Counted from the first letter of the stretch, positions 37,184-52,890 are shown. The stretch is 64,000 nucleotides of DNA from Candidatus Niyogibacteria bacterium CG10_big_fil_rev_8_21_14_0_10_46_36 (GCA_002772995.1 PFCO01000008.1:23150-87149), one strand, 5' to 3'. Numbers and translations are program-made. The notes: generated by a model from the letters alone, not told the origin.

Positions 37184-40100
37184 ATGACCGAGTGGAGTTC
37201 AATAATTCCTCGTTTATTGAAGGTAATAATGTCGATATCGTACCGGGATGATTTGTTGGACGCGATACGGAACGATGCGGCGCTCAATTCCGCATTACAG
37301 GCAACTCCGTATGTAGCGTTTTTAAGCAAGCTGAATGCAGAGGAAAGAAAAGGATCTGACATAGGCAAGCAGTGGGCGAGCCTACCCAAGCGGGAGCCAA
37401 AAAAGGCAAAAAAGAAAGCAAGGCTATCGTCCGAAGCAGCAGCACTTGAAAAACGCATCAAATTAGAACTCGCTCAGTTTGTCCATAGTGGAAATATAAA
37501 AAGCGAGGACGATGTAGATGCGTTATACGAACAGATTCGGTCTTCCTTTGGGAAAGACATCAAGATAACGCAGTATCGTTTCGGAAAAAGGAAGTATAAA
37601 TCGCTCATCGATGATCTTTTATGGACGGGCGGGAAAGACGGAACATTTACGGCGCTGAAAGAGATAGTCCGCAAGGATCTCCCTATTGAAAAGTTTTCCG
37701 AATATCATCCGCATATTCCTGTTTCATTGGTAGAAAAAAAGAAGCAGGAAATCTCTGGAGTGACGCAGACATCGCTTCCGGTGAAGCTATTGCCAGGAGT
37801 GGGGAGACTGACTGACGACATCCGCCATGCAGATGCCAATTTCAGCTTTCCCGGTAATTCGTATCATGAGCCGTTTGTGATATCGGGAGGAAAATCAGAT
37901 TTTTCCTTTATCGTTATCAATGGCCCTCAGGTCGGCATGCAGTATAGCAAGGTTATTGCAGAGAATCCTGTTCGCTGTGCGCTTGCGCAGGCGGAACGGG
38001 ACAAGTGCGATGCGGTGCTTCTTACGGGAACTATCGATGTGGATACGAAAAAGGCTGCGGGCCCCACAAAAGCGCTTCGCGCGCTCTTTTCGGGGAGAAA
38101 TACGAATGTAGACATGTTAAATCCCATCTACCAGAAAGAGGCAAAGAGCATTTTAAGTGAGGCGATGGGGCGAGATATCGTCTATGAAACGACTGCGGAA
38201 ATCTTCTCCAACCTGTTAAGCGGATGGAGAAAGATAACTATTCAGCCCGATGAGCAGCCAGAATTTAACGGTGATGTGTTTATCGTATTCGGTCCGAAAG
38301 AAGAAGAGATTATCTTGGCAGGTGCGTATTGGGAACTGCATTACAATACCATGCGCAAGATTGATCTTATCTTGGCGGAGATTAGCGTTGCCCGCAGCGG
38401 TCTTGCACGTGCGAAAAAAAACGGCAATACCCGGGAAGAACGTAAGTTGGAAAACAAACTTCTCGAACTTCAGGATCTGCGTACGCGTACGCGTATGACA
38501 AATGTGAGCGTTGAAGACTGGAAAAAGATGTACCGTAAGATGCTTGCGTTTGTTGTCCGCAGCTTTGAACAGACAATTCCGAACGCAAAAGTTATCAATA
38601 AAGGGACGACCTATCTGAAGGTAAATGGGTCAGTGTTTGAGATGCATATCCCGAGCACGCTCCAGGTAACTGACGCACTGCTTTCAAAATTCGTAGGGTC
38701 GTATGCACATGCGACATTGCGAAAGAGCTTTGCTGACACTGTTGTGATATGCCATCCGTATGCGATAAACCACCGGGTAACAGCGCGCGAAATAGATGCT
38801 GAGGGCAAACGCCGTTCGGCAGAGATTCATGTAGCGCCTATCTGTGTTGACGGTGTGATATTGCGCGACCGGATAAAGACCATAACAAAGAGTGTTCACG
38901 CAATACAGCGGGCAGTGTTCCATCCGTTGTTCAACCCCGGGGTGCTGAAGTTCCGTTGCGCCAAGGGGCTCATCACGACAAGCATGTTCGGTATTGATGC
39001 GCTTCGCAAGCATCTTCGTATTCTTTCCGGCGCGGAAAGCAAAACCAAAATAGCAGATAAATATATTTATCTGTTTGTGGGGACTGATCCGCACTGGGGG
39101 AGCAGAAGCAAAGAATTTATCTGGTGCGACGAAAGGCGCGAGTATCTCGGCATGACCGAATGCGCGTTTCATCTGCTCCGGAAATACCGCAATATGAAAT
39201 CTTTGGGTGTTCACATGTTCGTTTCTAATGACGACATTACCCAGGGACATCATTTCCCTTCGCAAAAACAGCCGCACCAAAACCAGATGCCGTATGACTT
39301 CTTTGAAAAGAAATGGGGTGAGGCGATTGCTGAGGCTGAAAAAGTAGCGGAGAATAACGATCCGAAAGCGTTGTTCAAATTGCTTCGGGATATGAGAGAT
39401 CTTTCGCTAGACCAGATTCGCGTGCGCGGTATTGATTGGGTGCGTGACCAGCTTGAAGAGGTCCTATACCGCCACCTAAAACCGAATGTCGATATATTTG
39501 ACGGCATTCTTTCATCGGGAACGCGCGCAGGGCTTATAGTGAAAGGCGCGTCTCATTATCTGCAGACGCAGTTTGACCGGAGGGATATTGGTCTCATTAA
39601 TTTCGGCGACGGAAACCATTTTTCAAAGACGACAGACAGGAATCTTATGGAAAATACCATCGTTGCGCAGTACCTGCGGCTCCTGCTGGGTCAGATGAAA
39701 AAATGGGAAAAAGAAAAAGATCTTCTCGATGCCCTTGTCCGCGATCCGATACACGGCAATCAGTTTATCGGCTGGGGAACGGTAGAAGCGCCTGGCGGAT
39801 ATGTATGGGCGTTCGATCTCCGGAGCTCTCCTACGGGACTGGGAATTGATTGGAATGATCCGTTCCTGAAAATGTCACGCAATGACATGAAGCGCGGAAA
39901 CTTTACGCGGTTTTTTGAGAACAAGTATACGGTCAAGGTGGTAGGTGATAAGCATTTCTACACGACACAATGCACCGCTCAGGCACTGTATCTCATGGGA
40001 CCGCCGGGGACATCTACGGATGTATACGGTGAGCTTGGTTTTCCGCCGAATAATACGGGAATTCTTTTTGTAGGACTTCCGGCGGAAGGTCCTGATGCCG

Positions 40101-40201
40101 GGCCAATTCTTTTCCGGCCGCTCCTGTATGATCGTCTGCGCGAATATATAGAAGAGAAAAAACCATTTGATTGGGATTCATTCCTCCCCAATCCGTTATA
40201 A
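37184..40201 (+). CDS. Large orphan cytoplasmic protein (1005 aa); Lys-rich N-terminal region; C-terminal half carries degenerate metallophosphoesterase-like motifs
   Basis: Uninterrupted 3018-nt ORF with a strong ribosome-binding site, its own promoter and a terminator at 40233-40261. No TM or signal sequence. Candidate motifs are LFVGTDPHWG (D-x-H), SNDDITQGHH (GD-x-x-D-x-G-like) and FGDGNHF (GNH). Confidence 0.85.
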   Translation: MTEWSSIIPRLLKVIMSISYRDDLLDAIRNDAALNSALQATPYVAFLSKLNAEERKGSDIGKQWASLPKREPKKAKKKARLSSEAAALEKRIKLELAQFVHSGNIKSEDDVDALYEQIRSSFGKDIKITQYRFGKRKYKSLIDDLLWTGGKDGTFTALKEIVRKDLPIEKFSEYHPHIPVSLVEKKKQEISGVTQTSLPVKLLPGVGRLTDDIRHADANFSFPGNSYHEPFVISGGKSDFSFIVINGPQVGMQYSKVIAENPVRCALAQAERDKCDAVLLTGTIDVDTKKAAGPTKALRALFSGRNTNVDMLNPIYQKEAKSILSEAMGRDIVYETTAEIFSNLLSGWRKITIQPDEQPEFNGDVFIVFGPKEEEIILAGAYWELHYNTMRKIDLILAEISVARSGLARAKKNGNTREERKLENKLLELQDLRTRTRMTNVSVEDWKKMYRKMLAFVVRSFEQTIPNAKVINKGTTYLKVNGSVFEMHIPSTLQVTDALLSKFVGSYAHATLRKSFADTVVICHPYAINHRVTAREIDAEGKRRSAEIHVAPICVDGVILRDRIKTITKSVHAIQRAVFHPLFNPGVLKFRCAKGLITTSMFGIDALRKHLRILSGAESKTKIADKYIYLFVGTDPHWGSRSKEFIWCDERREYLGMTECAFHLLRKYRNMKSLGVHMFVSNDDITQGHHFPSQKQPHQNQMPYDFFEKKWGEAIAEAEKVAENNDPKALFKLLRDMRDLSLDQIRVRGIDWVRDQLEEVLYRHLKPNVDIFDGILSSGTRAGLIVKGASHYLQTQFDRRDIGLINFGDGNHFSKTTDRNLMENTIVAQYLRLLLGQMKKWEKEKDLLDALVRDPIHGNQFIGWGTVEAPGGYVWAFDLRSSPTGLGIDWNDPFLKMSRNDMKRGNFTRFFENKYTVKVVGDKHFYTTQCTAQALYLMGPPGTSTDVYGELGFPPNNTGILFVGLPAEGPDAGPILFRPLLYDRLREYIEEKKPFDWDSFLPNPL

Positions 40202-44623: not shown

Positions 44624-46474
44624 TTAGTTATCAAGATTATAAATGAATATCGATTTTCCTGCACGAGCGATGGGGGTTTTACCGCGAAGCCAATCATAGC
44701 GGTCTTGTTTCGGGATATCGAATCCCTTTACTGTGGTGCCCCATGCGGTTTGCCGGAGCGTTATTGAAATTGCAAACCACCCTCCGTCCGGTTCTCCTTT
44801 TGCCGAATACCATTCCTCGTACGCATCGCCTAGGTAATACCGCGGCGAGCCGCCCCCGAAGTAATTTAGGCGTATATGACTAATTTCTTGTTCGTCCACA
44901 AATGCTTTGAGCCGTTTTAAGTCCTGCCCCCAGTCATAGTTGGAATCGACAATATAGGAGTATCCATTGTCAGTACCTCCTGCAAGCGCGTTGTAATAAG
45001 AAAGATAATTCGGGAAGGCAAAAAGAACAGTGCCCGCCATCCATAGTAATAAGATGGAAACACACAGGAACTTAGGAATGCGCTTCATCATCATTTCATA
45101 TAATGATATGAGCCACTCTCTTATCGTCTGCGGGTCGGTAAAGGTGACATGATGGGTCCAGCGGACAATTTCACGCGCTACGATAAGAAAGATAAATGGA
45201 AATGTCGGCAAAACATGGCGTACGCCGATATTCAGGGGGCTTGCAATAGAACTTATCCAATAGATAACAACGAATAGTCCGCTTCCGGTAAGTACAAAGT
45301 TGTCGCGCATCCATTCAAGAGTAGAGGAAACTGCTTTTTCATGGCTCCGCGCAACCATAACCAAGAATAATATAAGCGCAAGTACTGTCAGGAGATGGAA
45401 CGCAAGCTGTTCTTTTAGAAGATATGCGACCGGAAAATAATCAAGCCAGCCGTTATTGGTAACTTCGCCCAAAAAGTATGTGGTATTCCCGTGCGTGCCG
45501 CGATTAACAACCATAAGGAGACCATGAGCGTATTGCGTGAGCGGGCGCAGCAGCGGGACTTCGCTTAATTGTATGAGCGTTTGTGCAACCGGCTGGAAGC
45601 GGACATCTTTTAAGTTAGACTGCATATCCCGTATCTGTATGTCTGGGGGGTAGTGCCAAACATGGAACGCGTATACCGCGTATATAAGCACAAGGCCAAT
45701 CAGCCCTATCAGAATGAGATTGCCAAGCAGCCGGGCTTCGTGTTTCAAAAAATGCACAAGCCGTTTTGGGAAAGAAGATAAGGAGCGCATATGGTCAAGG
45801 TGTGCTAGCAATATCCAGAGCGTCCCTAGAACCACAAATAACGGGATGAGGAGCACGAGGGAGAATTTAAGCAATTGAGCTACCCCAAAAGCAACACCGG
45901 CAATGCAGAGGTTTTTTTTGGTGGAGGATGAGAGATATCTAAAAAATGATGCGAGCCCTATAAAAAATGCAAAGGCCGCTGCAAGATCAGTAGTGACATA
46001 TCGGGCATGCGCGATAATGGTTGGCGAAGTGACGAAAAAGAATAGTGAGAGCAAACCCACCTTCTCGCCATACAAGCTTGAAGCCCAGCGATAGAACAGC
46101 CATCCAAACAGCATGGCTAGAAGCATGAGTGGGAGACGGGCCCAAAAAAGAATTTGATCGGGGTTATTTCCTGATTCGTACAAGAACACGGATCCCATTA
46201 TCCATTGGCCGTTTACATCTGTTTCCCAGGCGGGAATATCAGTGGGGAAGTTTAAATGCAAAAATAAAAGCGGGATTCCTGCGAGGTCTTTTGCAAGCGG
46301 AGGATGTTCGGGATTGAGCCGGTAGTCTTGCTCGGCTATATACGAATATGACGCAGGAATATGCGCCAACTCATCCATGATTGCTGATTCCGGGAGTGCA
46401 GAAAAGAGCGTCACGACAAAAAGTGCCGCAAGCATGAAAAGAGCTATTGAGTGTGATATGCGATGATTAATCAT
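44624..46474 (-). CDS. Family-39-like (PMT/ArnT-type) polyprenyl-phosphate-dependent membrane glycosyltransferase
   Basis: More than 10 TM helices. The N-terminal loop motif DELAHIPASYSY...EHPPLAK is typical of GT39/GT83-like enzymes. Confidence 0.75.
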   Translation of the reverse strand: MINHRISHSIALFMLAALFVVTLFSALPESAIMDELAHIPASYSYIAEQDYRLNPEHPPLAKDLAGIPLLFLHLNFPTDIPAWETDVNGQWIMGSVFLYESGNNPDQILFWARLPLMLLAMLFGWLFYRWASSLYGEKVGLLSLFFFVTSPTIIAHARYVTTDLAAAFAFFIGLASFFRYLSSSTKKNLCIAGVAFGVAQLLKFSLVLLIPLFVVLGTLWILLAHLDHMRSLSSFPKRLVHFLKHEARLLGNLILIGLIGLVLIYAVYAFHVWHYPPDIQIRDMQSNLKDVRFQPVAQTLIQLSEVPLLRPLTQYAHGLLMVVNRGTHGNTTYFLGEVTNNGWLDYFPVAYLLKEQLAFHLLTVLALILFLVMVARSHEKAVSSTLEWMRDNFVLTGSGLFVVIYWISSIASPLNIGVRHVLPTFPFIFLIVAREIVRWTHHVTFTDPQTIREWLISLYEMMMKRIPKFLCVSILLLWMAGTVLFAFPNYLSYYNALAGGTDNGYSYIVDSNYDWGQDLKRLKAFVDEQEISHIRLNYFGGGSPRYYLGDAYEEWYSAKGEPDGGWFAISITLRQTAWGTTVKGFDIPKQDRYDWLRGKTPIARAGKSIFIYNLDN

Positions 46475-46475
46475 A

Positions 46476-48116
46476 TTATTTTCTCATGATGAGGTATCCA
46501 GTTTCCGGAGAAATGCTAAGTCCCGGGATCTGCTCTCGCAAGCGGAGACGTAGCATTTCATCTTTCTCAAGCATGGCGACAATACAGCTATCGGCGCACG
46601 CGATATCCCCGATATCTTCCGGATATAGATAGGTAATGTGTTTTTCAGTTTGTTTTTCTTTACTCCAGCTGTCAGTAACGAACATGATTGACTGAGAAGG
46701 CATCGGGAGACTGCGGGTGTCGCCGGGGACGGGTATGCGTACTCCGTCTGCGTTTATTATAATATATTTTTCTATTTCTTGAGGCTGAGCATTCAGCCAT
46801 CGTCCAATCTCAGTATAGTTAGTGCTAAATGCGTCATATACCTCAACATTCGAGCCCCATCGAAGGACATATTGATTGAATGCCTGCAACGCGCCTGCCA
46901 GAAAAAACACAATAAGGAGAAACACCAATTCTTTGCGAATTCTGTGAAGCTGGCGTGCCGCGTGCGGGACCGCGCGTTCTTTTTGGGCAAGCCATCCGCC
47001 GATATTATGCATGACTGATGAGAGTGCGTGCGCAGAAATCATCATAACAGGCGGGATGACAAGCAGGGCGCGGAGCGCATGTGGGATGCCCTCGTTAGAA
47101 AATATAACCGGAAGCAGCCCCAATATAATCCACCCAAAAAGAAAAAGAGATATCTGCCAGTGTTTTTTTCTGCGCAAGGAAGATGCGTGCATCACAATGC
47201 CTAATGCAAATAATATTCCCACAGGGAACCATAGCTCCGGAGCGCCCGAAACATTATGTCTCCAATTGCCGTCACCCTGAAACCAAAACATGCCAAATGT
47301 CTGTAATGTATTTTCGATGATGGTGCTGATGGGGGAGGGCGTGTCAAAAACGGAAATTTGTGCCGTGCGTCCCAAAAAGTCCGTTGGGTGGTTTAAGAAA
47401 TATACGCCGAGCGGAAGCGCTGCGATAACAGCGAAGAACAAAAAAAGAGCAAACGAACACCACATGCATCCTTGTTTCCCAAAACCCCGGAGCCCTTGTT
47501 CTTTCCATATCTTGATAAATGGGATAGCTAATAAGAGCGGCATGACACGGTAAGCGATGTATGAATGAAATCCTCCTCCGAAAAAGATGCCGCCTGCGGC
47601 AGCAGCGAGTGTCTTTTTTGTGTCAGAAAGGTCTTTTCTAAATGTGAGCCACAAGAAATAAAACCCGAATGTCAGAAAGAACGGAGCCATAATTGCACGA
47701 AATCCGATGCGCGAAAAATTAATATGCCAGAATGATGTTGCAAGGAAGAATGCGGCGATGAGCGCTATGAGTTCCGCCCGTTCTTTATGCGTTTCGCGGA
47801 ACAGCTCTTTTGTAAGGAGATATGTGCCAAGAACGGTAAGAATGCCAAAGAGCGCTGATAGCAGGTGAAGCACCCATATATTGTTTCCGAACAACGAAAA
47901 TATTCCTGCGGCAAGTATAATGTAAAGCCCTTCTCTTCCGTTGTTCTCGCTATAGAACATTTGAGGGGATCCGGTGTCTAATGTCTGGATTGCATTATTG
48001 CCGTTCATCGCTTCGTCCGGGTATATGCCGGGCGGTATGTCGGCCAGATCAAATGTCCGTAAAAAAACAGCAACCAGGAGGACGCAGAGGAGCAATATAA
48101 TGTGTAACTTTTGCAT
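46476..48116 (-). CDS. Second family-39-like membrane glycosyltransferase (tandem paralogue)
   Basis: Polytopic, with the loop motif PGIYPDEAMNGNNA. Start chosen at ATG 48116 (MQKLHIILLL), where hydrophobicity begins; the longer track ORF has a Cys/Ser-rich non-membrane extension. Confidence 0.7.
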   Translation of the reverse strand: MQKLHIILLLCVLLVAVFLRTFDLADIPPGIYPDEAMNGNNAIQTLDTGSPQMFYSENNGREGLYIILAAGIFSLFGNNIWVLHLLSALFGILTVLGTYLLTKELFRETHKERAELIALIAAFFLATSFWHINFSRIGFRAIMAPFFLTFGFYFLWLTFRKDLSDTKKTLAAAAGGIFFGGGFHSYIAYRVMPLLLAIPFIKIWKEQGLRGFGKQGCMWCSFALFLFFAVIAALPLGVYFLNHPTDFLGRTAQISVFDTPSPISTIIENTLQTFGMFWFQGDGNWRHNVSGAPELWFPVGILFALGIVMHASSLRRKKHWQISLFLFGWIILGLLPVIFSNEGIPHALRALLVIPPVMMISAHALSSVMHNIGGWLAQKERAVPHAARQLHRIRKELVFLLIVFFLAGALQAFNQYVLRWGSNVEVYDAFSTNYTEIGRWLNAQPQEIEKYIIINADGVRIPVPGDTRSLPMPSQSIMFVTDSWSKEKQTEKHITYLYPEDIGDIACADSCIVAMLEKDEMLRLRLREQIPGLSISPETGYLIMRK

Positions 48117-48138
48117 ATATCTATTATAATAGAGAAAT

Positions 48139-48537
48139 ATGAATACTACACCGGAACGGCCCTTCTCTTCTCCGCAGGAAGAAATCCAGTGGCTGAGAGG
48201 CCAGCTTGAATCAAAAACCAGCCCTGAACAGAATGAACCCACCCTCTCCAAGGAAGCGGCTAAGGAAATATTGCATGAAGTGGTAGAAAAAGCATCACAG
48301 CCGTCGGAGTCATACGCATTGCCCGATAGCGATATTAAAAAAAAGGCAGAAAGCATGGAGCAAGAGGAGCACCATGAACAAATAGATGAACTTATGGCCA
48401 TTGCTCAAGAAAAAGGCATTATATCTGCCTTGAAGGTTGCCCGCAGCATTGGCAATCCTCATATTCTTGATGATTTTCATGATCATTTGATAGAGATTCT
48501 GTTGTTTCAGGATGATTCACAGTCATCTTCATCATAA
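48139..48537 (+). CDS. Hypothetical acidic protein (132 aa)
   Basis: TATTATAAT box 7 nt upstream, possibly leaderless; low-complexity acidic sequence. Confidence 0.45.
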   Translation: MNTTPERPFSSPQEEIQWLRGQLESKTSPEQNEPTLSKEAAKEILHEVVEKASQPSESYALPDSDIKKKAESMEQEEHHEQIDELMAIAQEKGIISALKVARSIGNPHILDDFHDHLIEILLFQDDSQSSSS

Positions 48538-48543
48538 AAACAT

Positions 48544-50967
48544 ATGATGCTTATATATGGCATTGTTGCATATCTTCCATTCCTCATAGTAGGCGTTATC
48601 GCCATCGGAGTTGTGCTTTATTTTGTAAATCATATGCGCACTCGGCGCCAGCTGGAGCGTTCGTTACAGTTTGTGTTGTATGAGGTCACATTCTCGGAAG
48701 AGGAATCTCCCGTAGGGGAGGGGGGCTTTAAGAATTTCATTTCTGTGATGGAGCAGTTTTATAGCGGCATGAGCGCGATCAGCGAAGCAAAAGTCCCATG
48801 GGGCATTGGAAAAAATTTTTATGTGCTGGAACTTGCGTTACCCGACATAGGGGAGGAGACCACATTTTATGTCGGCATGCAGCATGCCCATCGGCGTATT
48901 TTCGAAAAGCAGCTCGAAAGTCTTTTCCCGCATGCTCGGGCGGAAGTCGTCCAGCATGATTACAATATTTTTAACGCGGAAGGCGCAAGCAAGGGCGCGG
49001 TCATAACGCTGTCGAAAAATTTTGCGCTTCCGGTGCGCACCTACGACAAACTGGAAGCCGACCCGCTGGAGGTGCTTGCAAATGCTTTTTCTAAATTGAA
49101 GAAAAAGGGAGAAGGAGCGGCTCTTCAAATTATTGTAGAGCCCGCAGAAAAAGAAGTGGTCCGGAAAATACACAAAGCGCGCGAAATGCTTTTAGAGGGC
49201 AATTCTCTTTCGCAAAGCGAGGCGAGCGGATGGATGGGAGAGCTTTCAAGAACATTTCGTATATTTTCCAGCTCATCATCTTCAGTAAAGAAAAAAGAAG
49301 ACCCAAAACAGCGGGTGTATGAGGAGGCGGTAAAATTGGTGGAAGAAAAAATGAATTCCCCCCTCTTTAAAGTAAACATACGCATCATCACTTCTGCCCC
49401 CACCGAAGAAGAAGCAGGCGGCATTTTAAAAGAGATATCGTCAGCGTTTCTTCAGTTTTCGGAACCCCAAGGAAATCAATTTATGGTACAAGACATAAAA
49501 CGATCGAAATTGCAGGAATTCTTTTATCTGTTTTCGTTTCGTATGTTTTCGGGGGCGTCGGCTTCATATATAAACGCTCGTGAGCTTACGAGCGTTTATC
49601 ACTTTCCGTACGGCGCGGTTTCTGCACCAAGGTTAAAAACTCTTAAGTCAAAAGATGCGCCCGCTCCGGCAAATCTTCCCCAGGAAGGGATTCTTTTGGG
49701 CACAAATTCATTCCGTGGAGAGTATCTCCCGGTGCGCATGAAGCTTGATGACCGCAGGCGGCATCAGTATATCATCGGGCAGACAGGAACCGGAAAGTCC
49801 GAATTTATGAAAAACATGATCCGCCAGGATATCGAGATCGGGCAGGGGATTTGCGTTATCGATCCGCACGGAGATATGGTGAGCGATATTTTAGGGCAGA
49901 TTCCTGAAGAGCGTGTTCAGGATGTGATTTATTTTGATCCGGGGAATGTAGATATGCCTATGGGACTTAATTTTCTTGAATATGACGAGCGTTATCCCGA
50001 ACAAAAAACATTTGTTGTTGATGAACTTCTGGCTATATTTAATAAACTCTACAATATGGAGCTTGCGGGTGGGCCAATGTTTGAGCAATATTTCAGGAAT
50101 GCCGCACACTTGGTTCTTGAAGACCCGTCATCCGGCAATACCTTATTAGAAATTATCCGTGTGCTTTCTGATAAAGCATTCCGGGATTACAAACTCTCCC
50201 GGTCAAAAAATCCTTTGGTGAATGCGTTTTGGAAAGAGATTGCTGAAAAGGCAGGAGGGGAGCACGCGCTTCAGAATATGATCCCGTATATCACTTCAAA
50301 ATTTGATACATTCCTTTCAAACGAGATTATGCGCCCTATTATTGCGCAACAGCACTCCGCGTTCCAGATGCGCGATGTAATGGATAACGGCAAGATACTA
50401 CTAGTAAATCTTTCCAAGGGCCGTGTGGGTGAGACAAACTCTGCCTTATTGGGGTTGGTTATCGTCGGCAAAATTCTTATGGCGGCATTTTCCCGGGCAA
50501 GCGAAACGCATCAGGAACAGCGGCGGGATTTTTTCTTGTACTTGGATGAGTTTCAAAGCATTACTACGCCCTCTATCGCAACCATTCTTTCGGAAGCACG
50601 CAAATATAAGCTCAATCTCATTATGGCGCATCAATTTATCGGCCAGCTATCCGAAGATATACGGAAATCCGTCTTCGGCAATGTCGGGACAATGGTCTCA
50701 TTCCGCATCGGAAGAGAAGACGCCGAAATCATTGAGAAGCAGTTTGAGCCGGTATTTTCGGCGCACGATCTCACAAACATAGAGAATTTTCAGGCATATA
50801 TTAAAATGCTTATAGGCGGGCAAACAGCAAAGCCGTTCAATATTCGGACATTCCCTCCGAAAGAAAGCAATGCGGTTGAGGCTGAAGCAATCAAAGAATT
50901 GTCCTCCCAGAAATATGGTCGTCCCCGGAAAGAGATAGAGGAGGAAGTTATGAGGCGATACCAATAA
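48544..50967 (+). CDS. TraG/VirD4/TraD-like (type IV coupling protein family) membrane ATPase with a roughly 400-aa N-terminal extension
   Basis: N-terminal TM helix. Walker A GQTGTGKS, followed by VIDPHGD, Walker B-like FLYLDEFQS and AHQFIGQL...FGNVGTMVSFRIG, which resembles the C-terminal motif of TraG/VirD4/DUF87 ATPases. Confidence 0.7.
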   Translation: MMLIYGIVAYLPFLIVGVIAIGVVLYFVNHMRTRRQLERSLQFVLYEVTFSEEESPVGEGGFKNFISVMEQFYSGMSAISEAKVPWGIGKNFYVLELALPDIGEETTFYVGMQHAHRRIFEKQLESLFPHARAEVVQHDYNIFNAEGASKGAVITLSKNFALPVRTYDKLEADPLEVLANAFSKLKKKGEGAALQIIVEPAEKEVVRKIHKAREMLLEGNSLSQSEASGWMGELSRTFRIFSSSSSSVKKKEDPKQRVYEEAVKLVEEKMNSPLFKVNIRIITSAPTEEEAGGILKEISSAFLQFSEPQGNQFMVQDIKRSKLQEFFYLFSFRMFSGASASYINARELTSVYHFPYGAVSAPRLKTLKSKDAPAPANLPQEGILLGTNSFRGEYLPVRMKLDDRRRHQYIIGQTGTGKSEFMKNMIRQDIEIGQGICVIDPHGDMVSDILGQIPEERVQDVIYFDPGNVDMPMGLNFLEYDERYPEQKTFVVDELLAIFNKLYNMELAGGPMFEQYFRNAAHLVLEDPSSGNTLLEIIRVLSDKAFRDYKLSRSKNPLVNAFWKEIAEKAGGEHALQNMIPYITSKFDTFLSNEIMRPIIAQQHSAFQMRDVMDNGKILLVNLSKGRVGETNSALLGLVIVGKILMAAFSRASETHQEQRRDFFLYLDEFQSITTPSIATILSEARKYKLNLIMAHQFIGQLSEDIRKSVFGNVGTMVSFRIGREDAEIIEKQFEPVFSAHDLTNIENFQAYIKMLIGGQTAKPFNIRTFPPKESNAVEAEAIKELSSQKYGRPRKEIEEEVMRRYQ

Positions 50968-50975
50968 TCAGCACT

Positions 50976-51533
50976 ATGTTTGTTCCATCATTATTGCAGG
51001 CGTTTTCTAATATTAGGGGCGTTTTGACTGCGGATGTCTCAATCTGGCTTTTGCTTACACCGCTTGTTGTGCTGTGGGTTGCTACCGAATTTTACTATGG
51101 AGAATACAAGCGTGAGCAGTTTGGATTTTCATCCGCGTTAACATCAGGCATGTCTCTGGTGTGGGTGAGCCTTGTTGCTGTGCGGGTGCTTTTTCTCTTT
51201 GATAGAGAAGGAGGCATATTTGCTTTGTTTGAGACATGGATACTTCTGGCATTCGTGCTGTACGGATTATTTATTGTGTATGCATCCTTCACGCATATTG
51301 TTACGCTTCGGGCGATGGGGAAGGTTGCGGCACCCTCCCTTTTGTATTTTCTTTCCATTGTTGCGGTTATCTTGGGGGAAGGAACGCTTGCGCTTAACTA
51401 TTATATCCTTCTCGCGTTTAGCATTGTTTTTATTGTATTAGTTGCATTCTTTTTTATTATTAAACGATATTTTTTGGGACTGCGCGGCGATATTGAGCGG
51501 GTCAAAGAAGCCGGCAGCAAACCAAAGATGTAA
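50976..51533 (+). CDS. Hypothetical 5-TM membrane protein
   Basis: Hydrophobic ORF directly downstream of the ATPase. Confidence 0.5.
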   Translation: MFVPSLLQAFSNIRGVLTADVSIWLLLTPLVVLWVATEFYYGEYKREQFGFSSALTSGMSLVWVSLVAVRVLFLFDREGGIFALFETWILLAFVLYGLFIVYASFTHIVTLRAMGKVAAPSLLYFLSIVAVILGEGTLALNYYILLAFSIVFIVLVAFFFIIKRYFLGLRGDIERVKEAGSKPKM

Positions 51534-51539
51534 ATATTT

Positions 51540-52187
51540 ATGGAGCAGCGATTTTTAGCGAAGGATTACATATTAGCATTTTTTTCTGGGCTTTTAACCG
51601 GACTTTTACTCTTGCCGGTGCTCCGGAATCTTGATGCCGGTATCCCATACCAGTCATGGGTTCTTCTTGTCGGGTTCCCGTTTTTGATGATATTCGGCCT
51701 TTTTGTGGGAGGGGTGCTGTCGCGGTGGGTGCGTATCTTTTTTCAGGCAAGCAAGTTTGCGGTAACTGGGTTTTTGAATATGGCGGTTGATTTTGGGGTG
51801 TTGAACCTTCTTATATCGTTTACCGGCATAAGTATGGGGGCATATTTTTCAGTATTCAAAGGCGCATCGTTTATCGTTGCAAATATCAATAGTTATTTCT
51901 GGAACAAATTTTGGACATTCCGGAAAAAGATTCCGGCGCATTTGGAATCTCTCGAATCGGTTCCCGGCGCGCAGAAGCAGGCGCCAAAAGAATATGCCCA
52001 GTTCTTCATCGTGAGCGTTATCGGTCTTTTGATAAATGTCGGTGCGGCAACACTGGTGGTCAATGTTGTCGGTGCGCAATTTGACTTGGGCGCAAACGCA
52101 TGGGCAAATGTCGGTGCGGTTGCCGGTTCTGCTGCAGGACTTTTGTGGAACTTTATCGGCTACAAACTCATCGTATTTAAATCATAA
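51540..52187 (+). CDS. GtrA-family membrane protein
   Basis: FAVTGFLNMAVDFGVLNLL...NSYFWNKFWTFR matches the GtrA domain pattern. Confidence 0.7.
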   Translation: MEQRFLAKDYILAFFSGLLTGLLLLPVLRNLDAGIPYQSWVLLVGFPFLMIFGLFVGGVLSRWVRIFFQASKFAVTGFLNMAVDFGVLNLLISFTGISMGAYFSVFKGASFIVANINSYFWNKFWTFRKKIPAHLESLESVPGAQKQAPKEYAQFFIVSVIGLLINVGAATLVVNVVGAQFDLGANAWANVGAVAGSAAGLLWNFIGYKLIVFKS

Positions 52188-52203
52188 TGTTTCTTTTTGG
52201 TGT

Positions 52204-52890
52204 GTGATTGAGGCGCATCCTATAACTACAAAATCCTGTGTTCGCTGCGAGGATGAGTTTTTGGGTGAGGCGTGGAGAAACGCGTGCTGGGACTGTTACG
52301 AATATGTTGTAGAGGGGCAGGAATTTTTTACGGAACGCATTATCTCTGACGACGCTCCCCGCCATTACGAGAACGGATTTTTCCTTTGGGAGAAAGAAGA
52401 CAAGGGCTATTACTGGTTCTCTCCCGATGAGCGCTGCGTATTGGTGCCTGAAAAATTTCACGAGTCAAAAACGCTTAAGCAGGTGATGCGTAAGCGCGCG
52501 TTACGATACACCGAAAACGAGCACTTTGATAAGGTTATGCTTTTGTGCAGAAACGCGCACATAAAAGACGGCGTGTGGCTTACGAATGAATTTATCCATC
52601 TGTTCTCCGATTTGTTCGGGAAGGGGTGCGCGTATTCAATTGAGGTGTGGGACGGTGACGATATTATCGGGGGGCTATTCGGGCTTCGCATGCCGTCATA
52701 TCGTTCCGTAGAATCTATGTTCAGCATACAAAATGATATGTCAAAACTCGCCTTACGCCATGTATGTAGCCTTGAGCGGGGGCATAGGAGCATTATTGAT
52801 CTTCAGATGGCCTCCAGGCACCTATTATCACTTGGTGCTGATGTTATTTCTCGTGATGAGTTTTTGTATCACATCAAAAAAACACCATAA
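52204..52890 (+). CDS. aat: Leucyl/phenylalanyl-tRNA--protein transferase (Aat) with N-terminal Cys4 zinc-ribbon-like extension; non-ATG (GTG) start likely
   Basis: ENGFFLWEKEDKGYYWFSPDERCVLVPEKFHESKTLKQ, IEVWDGDDIIGGLFGL and ESMFS...SKLAL...GHRSIIDLQ align with the Aat core. No in-frame ATG follows the upstream stop; GTG at 52204. N-terminal C-x2-C...C-x2-C. Confidence 0.7.
   Translation: MIEAHPITTKSCVRCEDEFLGEAWRNACWDCYEYVVEGQEFFTERIISDDAPRHYENGFFLWEKEDKGYYWFSPDERCVLVPEKFHESKTLKQVMRKRALRYTENEHFDKVMLLCRNAHIKDGVWLTNEFIHLFSDLFGKGCAYSIEVWDGDDIIGGLFGLRMPSYRSVESMFSIQNDMSKLALRHVCSLERGHRSIIDLQMASRHLLSLGADVISRDEFLYHIKKTP

Follow-up and report, generated by a model that had tools for sequence, protein, structure and literature searches.

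What does a coupling-type ATPase do on a Parcubacteria chromosome where no conjugation genes surround it? Patescibacteria account for much of bacterial diversity and depend on host cells. They need an unusual, relaxase-less type IV secretion system (T4SS), whose saccharibacterial gene cluster has been described as having no recognisable coupling protein (PMC10633639). Of 3,035 Patescibacteria genomes, 2,918 contain genes resembling those of coupling proteins (T4CP-like genes), which mostly lie at a distance from virB4; these orphan genes have been counted and exaptation suggested, and their scatter had no explanation (PMC12102498). For the missing T4SS ATPase the gene analysed here offers a concrete candidate; the alternative is a new housekeeping translocase.

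The gene lies in a window of 64,000 nucleotides, the whole stretch of a Candidatus Niyogibacteria (Parcubacteria/CPR) chromosome that was analysed. The original prediction placed it between a small acidic protein and a protein with five transmembrane spans (5-TM). The three ORFs and all the quoted motifs are real (Table 1), and calculation bears out the character of the two flanking proteins, with a pI of 4.6 for the first and five hydrophobic spans for the second. Base composition is uniform across the window, and no paralogue of the ATPase was found in it.

Table 1. Features of the ATPase locus, in window coordinates
Feature	Position (nt)	Strand	Residues	Remarks
PMT-family glycosyltransferase gene	46476-48116	-		Divergent; Pfam PMT, PMT_2
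Perfect 14-nt palindrome TCTATTATAATAGA	48120-48133			Inside the 22-nt divergent spacer
TATTATAAT box	48122-48130	+
TATAAT	48128-48123	-		6 nt before the ATG at 48116
-10 hexamer TATAAT	48125-48130	+		8 nt before the ATG at 48139; probable leaderless promoter
Small acidic ORF	48139-48537	+		132 aa
ATPase ORF	48544-50967	+		807 aa
N-terminal TM helix	48544-48642	+	about 1-33	Hydropathy; AF2 helix 2-41
DUF8128 domain	48658-49728	+	39-395	Alpha/beta; VirB4 N-terminal-domain fold
RecA-like P-loop ATPase domain	49729-50868	+	396-775	VirB4/VirD4/HerA type
Walker A, GQTGTGKS	49777-49800	+	412-419	ATPase
VIDPHGD			438-444	ATPase
Helical insertion of P-loop domain	~50002-50343	+		Between Walker A and Walker B
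Walker B, YLDEFQS	50539-50559	+	666-672	ATPase
AHQF			695-698	ATPase
FGNVGTMVSFRIG			711-723	ATPase
Conserved helical C-terminal tail	50869-50967	+	776-807	KYGRPR..E motif
5-TM protein ORF	50976-51533	+		185 aa
GtrA-family membrane protein gene	51540-52187	+		Pfam GtrA_DPMS_TM, 1.6e-16; 6-nt gap

A coupling-type motor behind a VirB4-like domain

The 807-aa protein is a member of the VirB4/VirD4/HerA superfamily of ATPases, and more than 4,200 homologues of it were found. Its reading as a VirD4/TraG-like coupling-type P-loop ATPase is supported by Pfam, whose coupling-protein models score above their gathering cut-offs (TrwB_AAD_bind, 41.8 bits against 20.5; T4SS-DNA_transf, 41.4 against 20.1; TraG-D_C, 22.6 against 22.0), as does DUF87 (36 against 23.2). 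An affiliation with FtsK/SpoIIIE, which would have spoken for a housekeeping family, was not found (the Pfam model FtsK_SpoIIIE scores 12.7 bits, the cut-off being 24). The NCBIfam TraD and VirD4-like models reach at most 43.6 bits, far below their cut-offs of 250-366.

In an alignment of 78 sequences the ATPase motifs all fall in columns that vary little or not at all. Walker A and B are intact, with an all-alpha insertion between them, as expected of a T4CP. Conservation extends into the C-terminal tail, where S787 and Y791 are invariant and G792, E799 and I802 nearly so; AF2 places helices at 777-791 and 795-806. At the other end, the transmembrane helix is followed by a basic stretch, RTRRQLER, and is predicted to lie N-out, C-in.

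In canonical T4CPs (VirD4, TrwB, TraD and DotL) a pair of N-terminal TM helices leads straight into the motor, and the P-loop lies at about residue 130-200. The VirD4 of pLS20 has two such helices. In contrast, the 807-aa ATPase has a single helix, absent from 59 of 80 orthologues, and some 350 VirB4-like residues separate this anchor from the P-loop.

That extension of roughly 370 residues had been left unassigned, but it can be assigned to Pfam DUF8128, with the fold of the VirB4 N-terminal domain and a disordered loop at residues 228-254. PF26449 (DUF8128) is the precomputed match of a 100%-identical database protein and of all 120 homologues among the matches listed, and UniRef names the protein 'DUF8128 domain-containing protein'. 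We found no mention of DUF8128 in the literature. An N-terminal domain of this fold followed by a RecA-like C-terminal domain is the build of VirB4, whose N-domain contacts T4SS membrane subunits in the R388 structures.

The relation of the N-domain to VirB4 is structural only, because hhalign gave no sequence link between the family and a plasmid AAA_10 VirB4 (probability 3.7%). VirB4 sequence models also stay below threshold (TIGR00929, 15.8 bits against 643.1; AAA_10, 14.6 against 27.5) or, for CagE_TrbE_VirB, give no match. At sequence level, then, the ATPase is not a member of the group represented by TrwK of R388 and the VirB4 of Thermoanaerobacter pseudethanolicus. In plasmids, DUF8128 ATPases occur alongside a true VirB4. 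The same is reported for the source genome, since a published table lists VirB4 as present in both candidate source assemblies. The description of the ATPase as an orphan holds within the window and, on that listing, not for the genome.

Relatives in conjugative plasmids and phages

DUF8128/DUF87-type ATPases occupy the coupling-protein slot of Bacillus subtilis FUA2231 and NRS6107 plasmids and of a plasmid from the actinomycete Embleya sp. The Bacillus homologue aligns over 650 columns, N-domain included (hhalign 99.9%, E 2e-36); its neighbours are Replic_Relax and TcpC genes and a VirB4 of its own, of AAA_10 type. The Embleya plasmid is laid out in the same way, and its protein has the same Pfam signatures as the 807-aa ATPase. 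The DUF8128 N-domain is thus not peculiar to the present gene, since the ATPases in the coupling slot of the Bacillus and Embleya conjugation operons have it as well.

These monoderm (MPF-FATA-like) plasmid proteins share the two-domain body of DUF8128 and P-loop motor, with the family HMM covering positions 42-805. They differ in several respects. They are plasmid-borne and sit beside Replic_Relax, TcpC/TcpE and a separate VirB4, whereas the Parcubacteria ATPase is a chromosomal core gene with neither T4SS genes nor a relaxase nearby. No acidic domain or partner accompanies them, and identity to the 807-aa protein is only 23-28%. Our search found no experimental work on DUF8128/DUF87-type plasmid proteins.

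A second set of relatives is viral. The phrog_5156 proteins encoded by Bacillus and Geobacillus phages (SP-10 gp203, TP-84, phage G gp156) are homologous over nearly the full length (E 1e-85 over residues 104-805; tblastn coverage 67-802), at about 21-24% identity. They lack the acidic domain and sit among replication and recombination genes.

An obligatory acidic partner domain, fused or split

The small upstream protein is helical and has 27 D+E against 12 K+R. Searches of Pfam, NCBIfam, PADLOC and PHROG assigned nothing to it, and a word-indexed homologue search returned only 10 relatives, none annotated. Orthologues 35-38% identical lie directly upstream of the ATPase in distant lineages, with an invariant N-x-H...D-x-F motif, which reads NPH(L/I)(L/M)D(D/E)F in three of four.

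A locally built HMM revealed how the domain is distributed. Every one of the 80 informative Parcubacteria loci has it: in 59 it is part of the ATPase polypeptide, and in 21 it has a gene of its own upstream. The acidic protein is thus a detachable N-terminal part of the ATPase, genetically tied to it as the recurrent fusion shows. Fusion follows the membrane anchor: the TM helix is present in 21/21 split-type and 0/59 fused-type proteins. A separate gene is expected where the ATPase has an N-out anchor, because a fused domain would lie outside the cell. The pattern makes testable predictions on subunit contact and topology. Of the three-gene unit proposed originally, the acidic protein and ATPase stand as an obligatory pair, but the 5-TM protein does not belong to it, being adjacent in only 3 of 84 loci.

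Small, mostly helical partners dedicated to one ATPase are familiar from T4SSs: CagZ with Cag-beta, IcmS/IcmW/LvgA with DotL, and TraM with TraD. When the motor is compared with the PDB by Foldseek, the Cag-beta/CagZ complex (PDB 8dol) appears among the matching structures. In Pfam and NCBIfam the acidic protein does not resemble any of these partners in sequence, and none of them is known to form the N-terminal domain of its ATPase, as in most Parcubacteria.

A candidate coupling motor for a distant T4SS

We propose that the locus encodes an exapted, vertically inherited coupling-type motor, a chromosomal core module of the ultra-small Parcubacteria from the VirB4/VirD4 (type IV secretion) ATPase lineage. 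The motor would have two subunits. The large one, tethered to the membrane by its single N-terminal helix, carries DUF8128 and then the coupling-protein-like P-loop domain. Judging by every solved relative, it should assemble into a ring, probably of six, and use ATP hydrolysis to move a polymer substrate or to recruit it. The small acidic protein would be its cytoplasmic partner and, on the precedent of CagZ for Cag-beta and IcmS/IcmW for DotL, most likely regulates or adapts the motor. The most likely role of the motor is that of the missing substrate-receptor (coupling) ATPase, docking on a non-conjugative, relaxase-less T4SS encoded elsewhere in the genome. In favour of it stand the coupling-slot position of the plasmid relatives and, indirectly, the VirB4 listed for the candidate source assemblies. 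We put the whole explanation, coupling role included, at roughly even odds (about 0.5).

Several observations speak against the coupling role. No T4SS component or relaxase lies within 5 kb in any of 84 loci. The family lacks a membrane anchor in 59 of 80 members, its phage relatives work without any T4SS, and the NCBIfam coupling-protein models remain well short of their cut-offs. T4CP-like genes occur in more genomes (2,918) than VirB4 does (2,417), and in S. epibionticum a T4CP homologue, DUF8128-type or other, is reported to be non-essential while the T4SS is essential (PMC12102498).

What emerges is an anatomy for this Parcubacteria gene class: a VirB4-type N-domain, a coupling-type motor and an obligatory acidic partner domain, fused or split according to the membrane anchor, with fixed chromosomal contexts and, in all likelihood, leaderless expression. 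DUF8128 ATPases also bear on the divergence of VirB4 and VirD4. A bolder reading, which we regard as improbable, takes them as a surviving VirB4/VirD4 intermediate, with the N-domain of the one on a motor like that of the other. In Parcubacteria it would have become a universal housekeeping motor, controlled by the acidic subunit, for uptake or processing of the host nucleic acid (or another polymer) that these epibionts, unable to make nucleotides, rely on, either through a pilus-bearing T4SS or alone.

Chromosomal context and other possible functions

The original prediction had noted the absence of conjugation genes, and this is borne out: the ten unassigned or context ORFs scanned in the window matched no T4SS, pilus or relaxase family, and there is no VirB3-, VirB6- or VirB8-type neighbour among the window ORFs scanned or the recurrent neighbours in the 84 loci. 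The module instead occupies fixed contexts, either secY-adk-map-X-ndk or PMT-X-GtrA, where X is the ATPase module. These contexts and the large number of homologues are what mark it as a core gene.

The first context would suit a T4SS-independent housekeeping translocase or helicase for nucleic acids, whose coupling-protein ancestry would be purely historical. It might serve in chromosome or DNA processing, or handle imported DNA or RNA in organisms unable to make nucleotides. Fused-type loci lie at the end of the secY-adk-map cluster, directly before ndk, in a constitutive housekeeping position; the proximity to ndk is weak evidence, because the spc operon normally ends with adk and map. Such a function would fit a near-universal gene distributed more widely than VirB4, with an ATPase that is soluble in 59 of 80 loci and phage homologues in DNA replication and recombination regions. 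Foldseek finds structural similarity to HerA and to FtsK-class DNA translocases, and exaptation has been raised by others (PMC12102498). However, the closest relatives with an informative context are members of T4SS operons, VirB4 is as yet the sole precedent for the N-domain fold, and a nuclease or NurA-like partner is absent (for NurA, among the recurrent neighbours in 84 loci). We consider a housekeeping translocase possible but rather unlikely.

The second context raises the question of whether the ATPase assembles or energises another envelope machine in the manner of VirB4, linked in split-type lineages to PMT, 5-TM and GtrA proteins and so to export of surface glycan or glycoprotein. 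The two-domain architecture is of VirB4 type. Small ORF, ATPase, 5-TM and GtrA genes are tightly packed, with gaps of 6-8 nt; the 5-TM gene, 8 nt behind the ATPase, is probably co-transcribed with it, and GtrA is the last tightly packed gene of the apparent operon. Of the 21 split-type loci, 9 have PMT upstream and 10 have GtrA downstream, and Ryanbacteria have the same gene arrangement. Neither gene accompanies any of the 59 fused-type orthologues, however, and the synteny could be gene order inherited within one clade. The sequence profiles favour VirD4/TraD over VirB4. Nor does the 5-TM protein help this case. Judged by its distribution, it is a lineage-restricted neighbour and not a core partner: a homologue follows directly in only the three loci mentioned, 42% identical in Ryanbacteria, with unrelated proteins elsewhere, and it belongs to no family in Pfam, NCBIfam, PADLOC or PHROG, with only 4 database matches, none annotated. 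An envelope machine of this kind is decidedly improbable.

A role in anti-phage defence, as an ATPase of HerA/DndH/MADS type, is more remote again. The mad8 (2.6e-18) and HerA models match the generic ATPase domain only, and the NCBIfam HerA family models score 13-18 bits with cut-offs of 800-970, leaving only the broad DUF87 above threshold. The N-domain matches VirB4 and not the HerA HAS-barrel. No other MADS, Dnd, Sir2 or nuclease partner was found in the window ORFs scanned or in the 84 loci, defence models matched none of the neighbours, and a fixed housekeeping position with near-universal occurrence is unlike a defence island.

Least credible of these readings, despite the homology to plasmid coupling-slot ATPases, is that the protein serves an integrated mobile element as a working conjugative coupling protein, given the absence of relaxase, oriT-type neighbours, integrase and T4SS genes from the window ORFs scanned and the recurrent neighbours in the 84 loci, the uniform composition of the window, a chromosomal context conserved across many lineages and the rarity of relaxases in Patescibacteria (109 in 103 genomes; PMC12102498).

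A probable leaderless promoter in a shared spacer

The proposed motor module and the PMT gene, whose true start is likely the ATG at 48116, diverge from a spacer whose palindrome, TCTATTATAATAGA, puts TATAAT on both strands. The upstream gene had been predicted to be leaderless, with its promoter box 7 nt from the ATG. The spacing is 8 nt, and the leaderless assignment itself gains from comparison: a TANNNT hexamer ends 5-9 nt before the first-gene ATG in 60 of 80 related loci, against a background of 8.4%, and an SD-like motif in only 2 of 80. This layout strongly supports leaderless expression, and the module would be transcribed from a strong -10 promoter. For want of a -35 element the promoter escaped a generic sigma-70 scan, which found promoter-like sites no more often than in shuffled controls.

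Stop-codon read-through from the small ORF into the ATPase was considered as a general mechanism and rejected, the two being out of frame or overlapping in 16 of 21 split loci. At the present locus (48139-50967) they are in frame, separated by TAA plus two codons.

Gene module and conserved motifs

All three open reading frames of the original prediction were found, and every ATPase motif that it named lies in the 807-aa protein: GQTGTGKS (residues 412–419), VIDPHGD (438–444), YLDEFQS (666–672), AHQF (695–698) and FGNVGTMVSFRIG (711–723). Across an alignment of 78 sequences, these motif residues show no or almost no variation. The membrane and charge features were also as predicted. There is a single hydrophobic helix at the N-terminus of the ATPase and there are five hydrophobic spans in the 185-aa protein; the small protein is acidic (D+E 27 vs K+R 12; pI 4.6). 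The ATPase is 100% identical to COU47_03505 (PIR69410.1), a hypothetical protein of a Candidatus Niyogibacteria (Parcubacteria/CPR) MAG. The window is uniform in composition and rich in housekeeping genes, LeuRS, GlmS, Ddl, MnmA and FtsH among them.

Coordinates of the features discussed
Feature	Sequence	Position	Strand
1005-aa soluble protein	window	37184–40201	+
Tandem PMT/ArnT-like glycosyltransferase genes	window	44624–46474 and 46476–48116	−
Spacer, 22 nt	window	48117–48138	
Small acidic protein, 132 aa	window	48139–48537	+
Small ORF/ATPase junction, in frame	window	48535–48546	
ATPase, 807 aa	window	48544–50967	+
5-TM protein, 185 aa	window	50976–51533	+
Leu/Phe-tRNA protein transferase domain ORF	window	52036–52890	+
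Small ORF/ATPase junction, in frame	L003	7992–8003	
Region with a Cas12a/Cpf1-type protein, 1,312 aa	Ryanbacteria contig (L001/L002)	14150–18436	
Phage TP-84 homologue	L006	5740–8004	
Phage SP-10 homologue	L090	4827–7358	
Haladaptatus plasmid homologue, 1,193 aa	L008	8332–11913	

A VirB4-like layout

The reading of the protein as a coupling-type ATPase survives comparison with the FtsK/SpoIIIE family. The ATPase passes the gathering cut-offs of four Pfam families (TrwB_AAD_bind, T4SS-DNA_transf, DUF87 and TraG-D_C). FtsK_SpoIIIE scores 12.7 against a cut-off of 24, so the protein is not placed in that housekeeping family. Scores against the NCBIfam models for coupling proteins, VirB4 and HerA fall far under their cut-offs. 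In a profile search, the best PDB-sequence matches were TrwB (6.5e-8) and DotL (1.5e-4). A confident AlphaFold2 model (mean pLDDT 85.4) was used for structure comparison. It best matched the VirB4 C-terminal domain (4ag5; 29.4, with 332/374 residues aligned) and the DndH C-domain (29.0), followed by TrwB (26.2), HerA (26.1), DotL (24.3), Cag-beta (21.4), TcpA (18.3) and FtsK (17.5). Profile scores and structure matches together place the modelled motor in the VirB4/VirD4 branch of the HerA-FtsK superfamily.

The N-terminal domain, which the original prediction could not assign, is DUF8128 (PF26449) and has the VirB4 N-terminal-domain fold. The identical protein and each of the 120 homologues listed carry PF26449 in their precomputed annotation; annotation tools call it DUF8128 and UniRef uses the name "DUF8128 domain-containing protein". 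An exhaustive search with residues 1–395 alone returned 1,133 clusters at 50% identity, and in the full-length proteins the domain always precedes ~400 more residues. In a structure search with the N-domain, the query lacked a P-loop domain and the matches included no further P-loop ATPase; therefore the match is to the VirB4 N-terminal domain. Foldseek independently gave the same answer, with 14 matches at E<=0.001, all TrwK chains, the remainder being noise. Sequence-profile comparison with a VirB4 detected no link, so the relationship is structural only. Given the fold match, the ATPase has a VirB4-like two-domain layout rather than that of a VirD4 carrying an unusual extension; its motor appears closer to VirD4/TraD in sequence.

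The acidic domain is fused or split

Orthologues of the small protein (130–144 aa, 35–38% identity) lie directly upstream of the ATPase in Ryanbacteria, Giovannonibacteria and another Parcubacteria locus. They share an invariant N-x-H...D-x-F; three of four sequences have it as NPH(L/I)(L/M)D(D/E)F. We fetched 80 further loci (84 total) and searched all ORFs with a small-protein HMM. At 59 loci the small domain forms the N-terminal part of one ORF of 902–1,164 aa (nearly all 902–971), and at 21 it has a gene of its own that directly precedes the ATPase. The other four are uninformative, as the contig begins at the ATPase. The domain is present in 80/80 informative loci, and the acidic protein is part of the ATPase. 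Plasmid and phage relatives carry no acidic domain; therefore it is specific to Patescibacteria.

None of the 59 fused proteins has a hydrophobic segment reaching the 1.6 threshold in its first 260 residues (maximum 19-residue hydropathy <=1.4 over the first 300 residues, eight scored). All split-type ATPases have a hydrophobic helix (2.4–2.8, four scored), followed by a basic stretch. Under the positive-inside rule, a helix with a basic stretch after it inserts N-out, C-in, so the split-type helix should adopt this topology. Any domain fused ahead of that helix would be carried to the outside; with the gene split, the acidic domain would stay inside. This gives a simple reason for a split exactly where the anchor exists, and implies that the acidic domain acts on the ATPase in the cytoplasm.

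The small ORF and ATPase of the window share a frame, separated by TAA and two codons. Such spacing has the look of a fused ancestor that split recently, or of two genes close to fusing. Another split locus, L003, has the same in-frame arrangement, and start-to-start spacing is 405 nt in both. At most split loci the two ORFs are in different frames, which makes stop-codon read-through no general explanation.

Two fixed genomic contexts

An unbiased neighbour census found two mutually exclusive contexts.

Neighbours of the fused and split forms
Neighbour	Side	Fused	Split
Ndk	downstream	31/59	0/21
Map	upstream	28/59	0/21
Adk	upstream	25/59	0/21
SecY	upstream	18/59	0/21
PMT-family glycosyltransferase	upstream	0/59	9/21
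GtrA	downstream	0/59	10/21

Ribosomal-protein genes, secY, adk and map precede the fused form and ndk follows it. PMT-family glycosyltransferases and GtrA flank the split form, including that of the window, where the upstream glycosyltransferase genes are in tandem. The envelope-glycosylation context thus occurs with the TM-anchored split form only (9–10/21; fused 0/59). None of the 84 loci contains a T4SS component or relaxase. The ATPase gene behaves like one inherited vertically as part of the core genome rather than like a mobile element; we disfavour reading it as part of a conjugative element or as a defence ATPase.

A 5-TM homologue lies directly downstream in just 3/84 loci, so the proposed three-gene synteny holds in part: the acidic protein and ATPase pair is conserved and the triplet is not. 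The 5-TM protein has four database relatives and no family assignment.

Predicted leaderless expression

The divergent PMT gene (likely start, ATG at 48116, −) and the small ORF (ATG at 48139, +) are separated by a spacer holding a perfect palindrome, TCTATTATAATAGA, which gives TATAAT 8 nt before the plus-strand ATG and 6 nt before the minus-strand ATG. These overlapping −10 boxes imply two putative back-to-back leaderless transcripts from mutually overlapping promoters. A TANNNT hexamer ends 5–9 nt before the first-gene ATG in 60/80 loci (background 8.4%), mostly as TATAAT or TATACT and often preceded by TG; an SD-like motif precedes it in only 2/80. These counts uphold the earlier suggestion of leaderless expression, which is probably a conserved property of the module. 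An SD-like motif precedes only ~10 of the 38 gene starts looked at in the window, and several other genes carry a TATAAT-like box 6–8 nt before the ATG (e.g. starts 26563 and 1669). Leaderless initiation may be common in this Niyogibacteria genome.

Plasmid, phage and archaeal relatives

With tblastn, near-full-length relatives (21–28% identity) were found on 296 plasmids of Bacillus, Streptomyces and relatives, haloarchaea and Sulfolobus, and in 55 phage records (Bacillus and Geobacillus). hhalign of the ATPase with the Bacillus protein covers 650 columns (query residues 70–772, probability 99.9%), so the N-domain is common to both. A 27.5-kb B. subtilis plasmid has the homologue as the first gene of its conjugation operon; behind it come a Replic_Relax protein, TcpC and, encoded separately, an AAA_10-type VirB4 (E 8e-116). 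A 64.7-kb B. subtilis plasmid is arranged in the same way, with the homologue ahead of genes annotated as Replic_Relax, TcpE family and large ATP-binding protein. The Embleya plasmid order is PrgI-family protein, VirB4-like ATPase, homologue, Replic_Relax and NlpC/P60. In these elements the homologue fills the coupling-protein slot beside a relaxase-type gene. The Bacillus and Embleya conjugation plasmids pair it with Replic_Relax and VirB4, whereas the Parcubacteria loci have no such partners.

The family phrog_5156 matches ATPase residues 104–805 (E 1e-85). Its full-length DUF8128-ATPase homologues in Geobacillus phage TP-84, Bacillus phage SP-10 and phage G (gp156) have early genes and genes of replication and recombination as neighbours, and T4SS genes are absent from their surroundings. 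The Haladaptatus plasmid homologue has a long C-terminal extension and follows two large hypothetical proteins. Eleven Sulfolobus plasmids were matched.

Possible role

The protein is a VirB4/VirD4-lineage ATPase with a VirB4-type N-domain, made as two subunits here and as a single chain elsewhere. Its gene belongs to the chromosomal core of Parcubacteria, with predicted leaderless expression. Judging from solved relatives, it would form a ring and use ATP to handle a polymer substrate. The acidic subunit may be a regulator or adaptor, on the analogy of CagZ with Cag-beta or IcmSW with DotL.

Patescibacteria hold 5,713 VirD4-like T4CP homologues in 2,918/3,035 genomes, only 148 of them near virB4 (PMC12102498). 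The count for VirB4 is 2,417 genomes, both CG10 Niyogibacteria assemblies among them (Table S1), and relaxases are rare (PMC12102498). In S. epibionticum the T4CP homologue is reported as non-essential, and exaptation was named as possible (PMC12102498). Neither a coupling protein nor a relaxase is recognisable in the essential Saccharibacterial T4SS cluster (PMC10633639). We slightly favour the ATPase as the missing coupling ATPase of a relaxase-less T4SS, given its plasmid relatives in T4SS operons, a T4SS cluster without a T4CP, and VirB4 in the genome. Slightly behind stands a T4SS-independent nucleic-acid translocase, for which speak a family found in more genomes than VirB4 and mostly soluble, the phage relatives and the housekeeping gene context.

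The protein and DUF8128 were already in databases, and scattered T4CP-like genes of Patescibacteria are published. The literature searched makes no mention of DUF8128. Absent from it are the VirB4-type fold, the obligatory acidic partner with its fusion and fission tied to a membrane anchor, the two fixed contexts, and the predicted conserved leaderless promoter.

Other genes noted

The Leu/Phe-tRNA protein transferase domain (Pfam 5.5e-44, residues 110–271) follows a Cys-rich stretch (CVRCEDEF...CWDCYEY); the ORF as listed overlaps the GtrA 3' end by ~150 nt, leaving its true start uncertain. The 1005-aa protein has no Pfam match at E<=0.01 and, by eye, metallophosphoesterase-like motifs (GTDPHWG, NDDITQGHH, GDGNHF). 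In Ryanbacteria, a Cas12a/Cpf1-type gene (REC1, RuvC_1, Cpf1 PI-like) followed by Cas4 lies ~4 kb downstream of the orthologous module.
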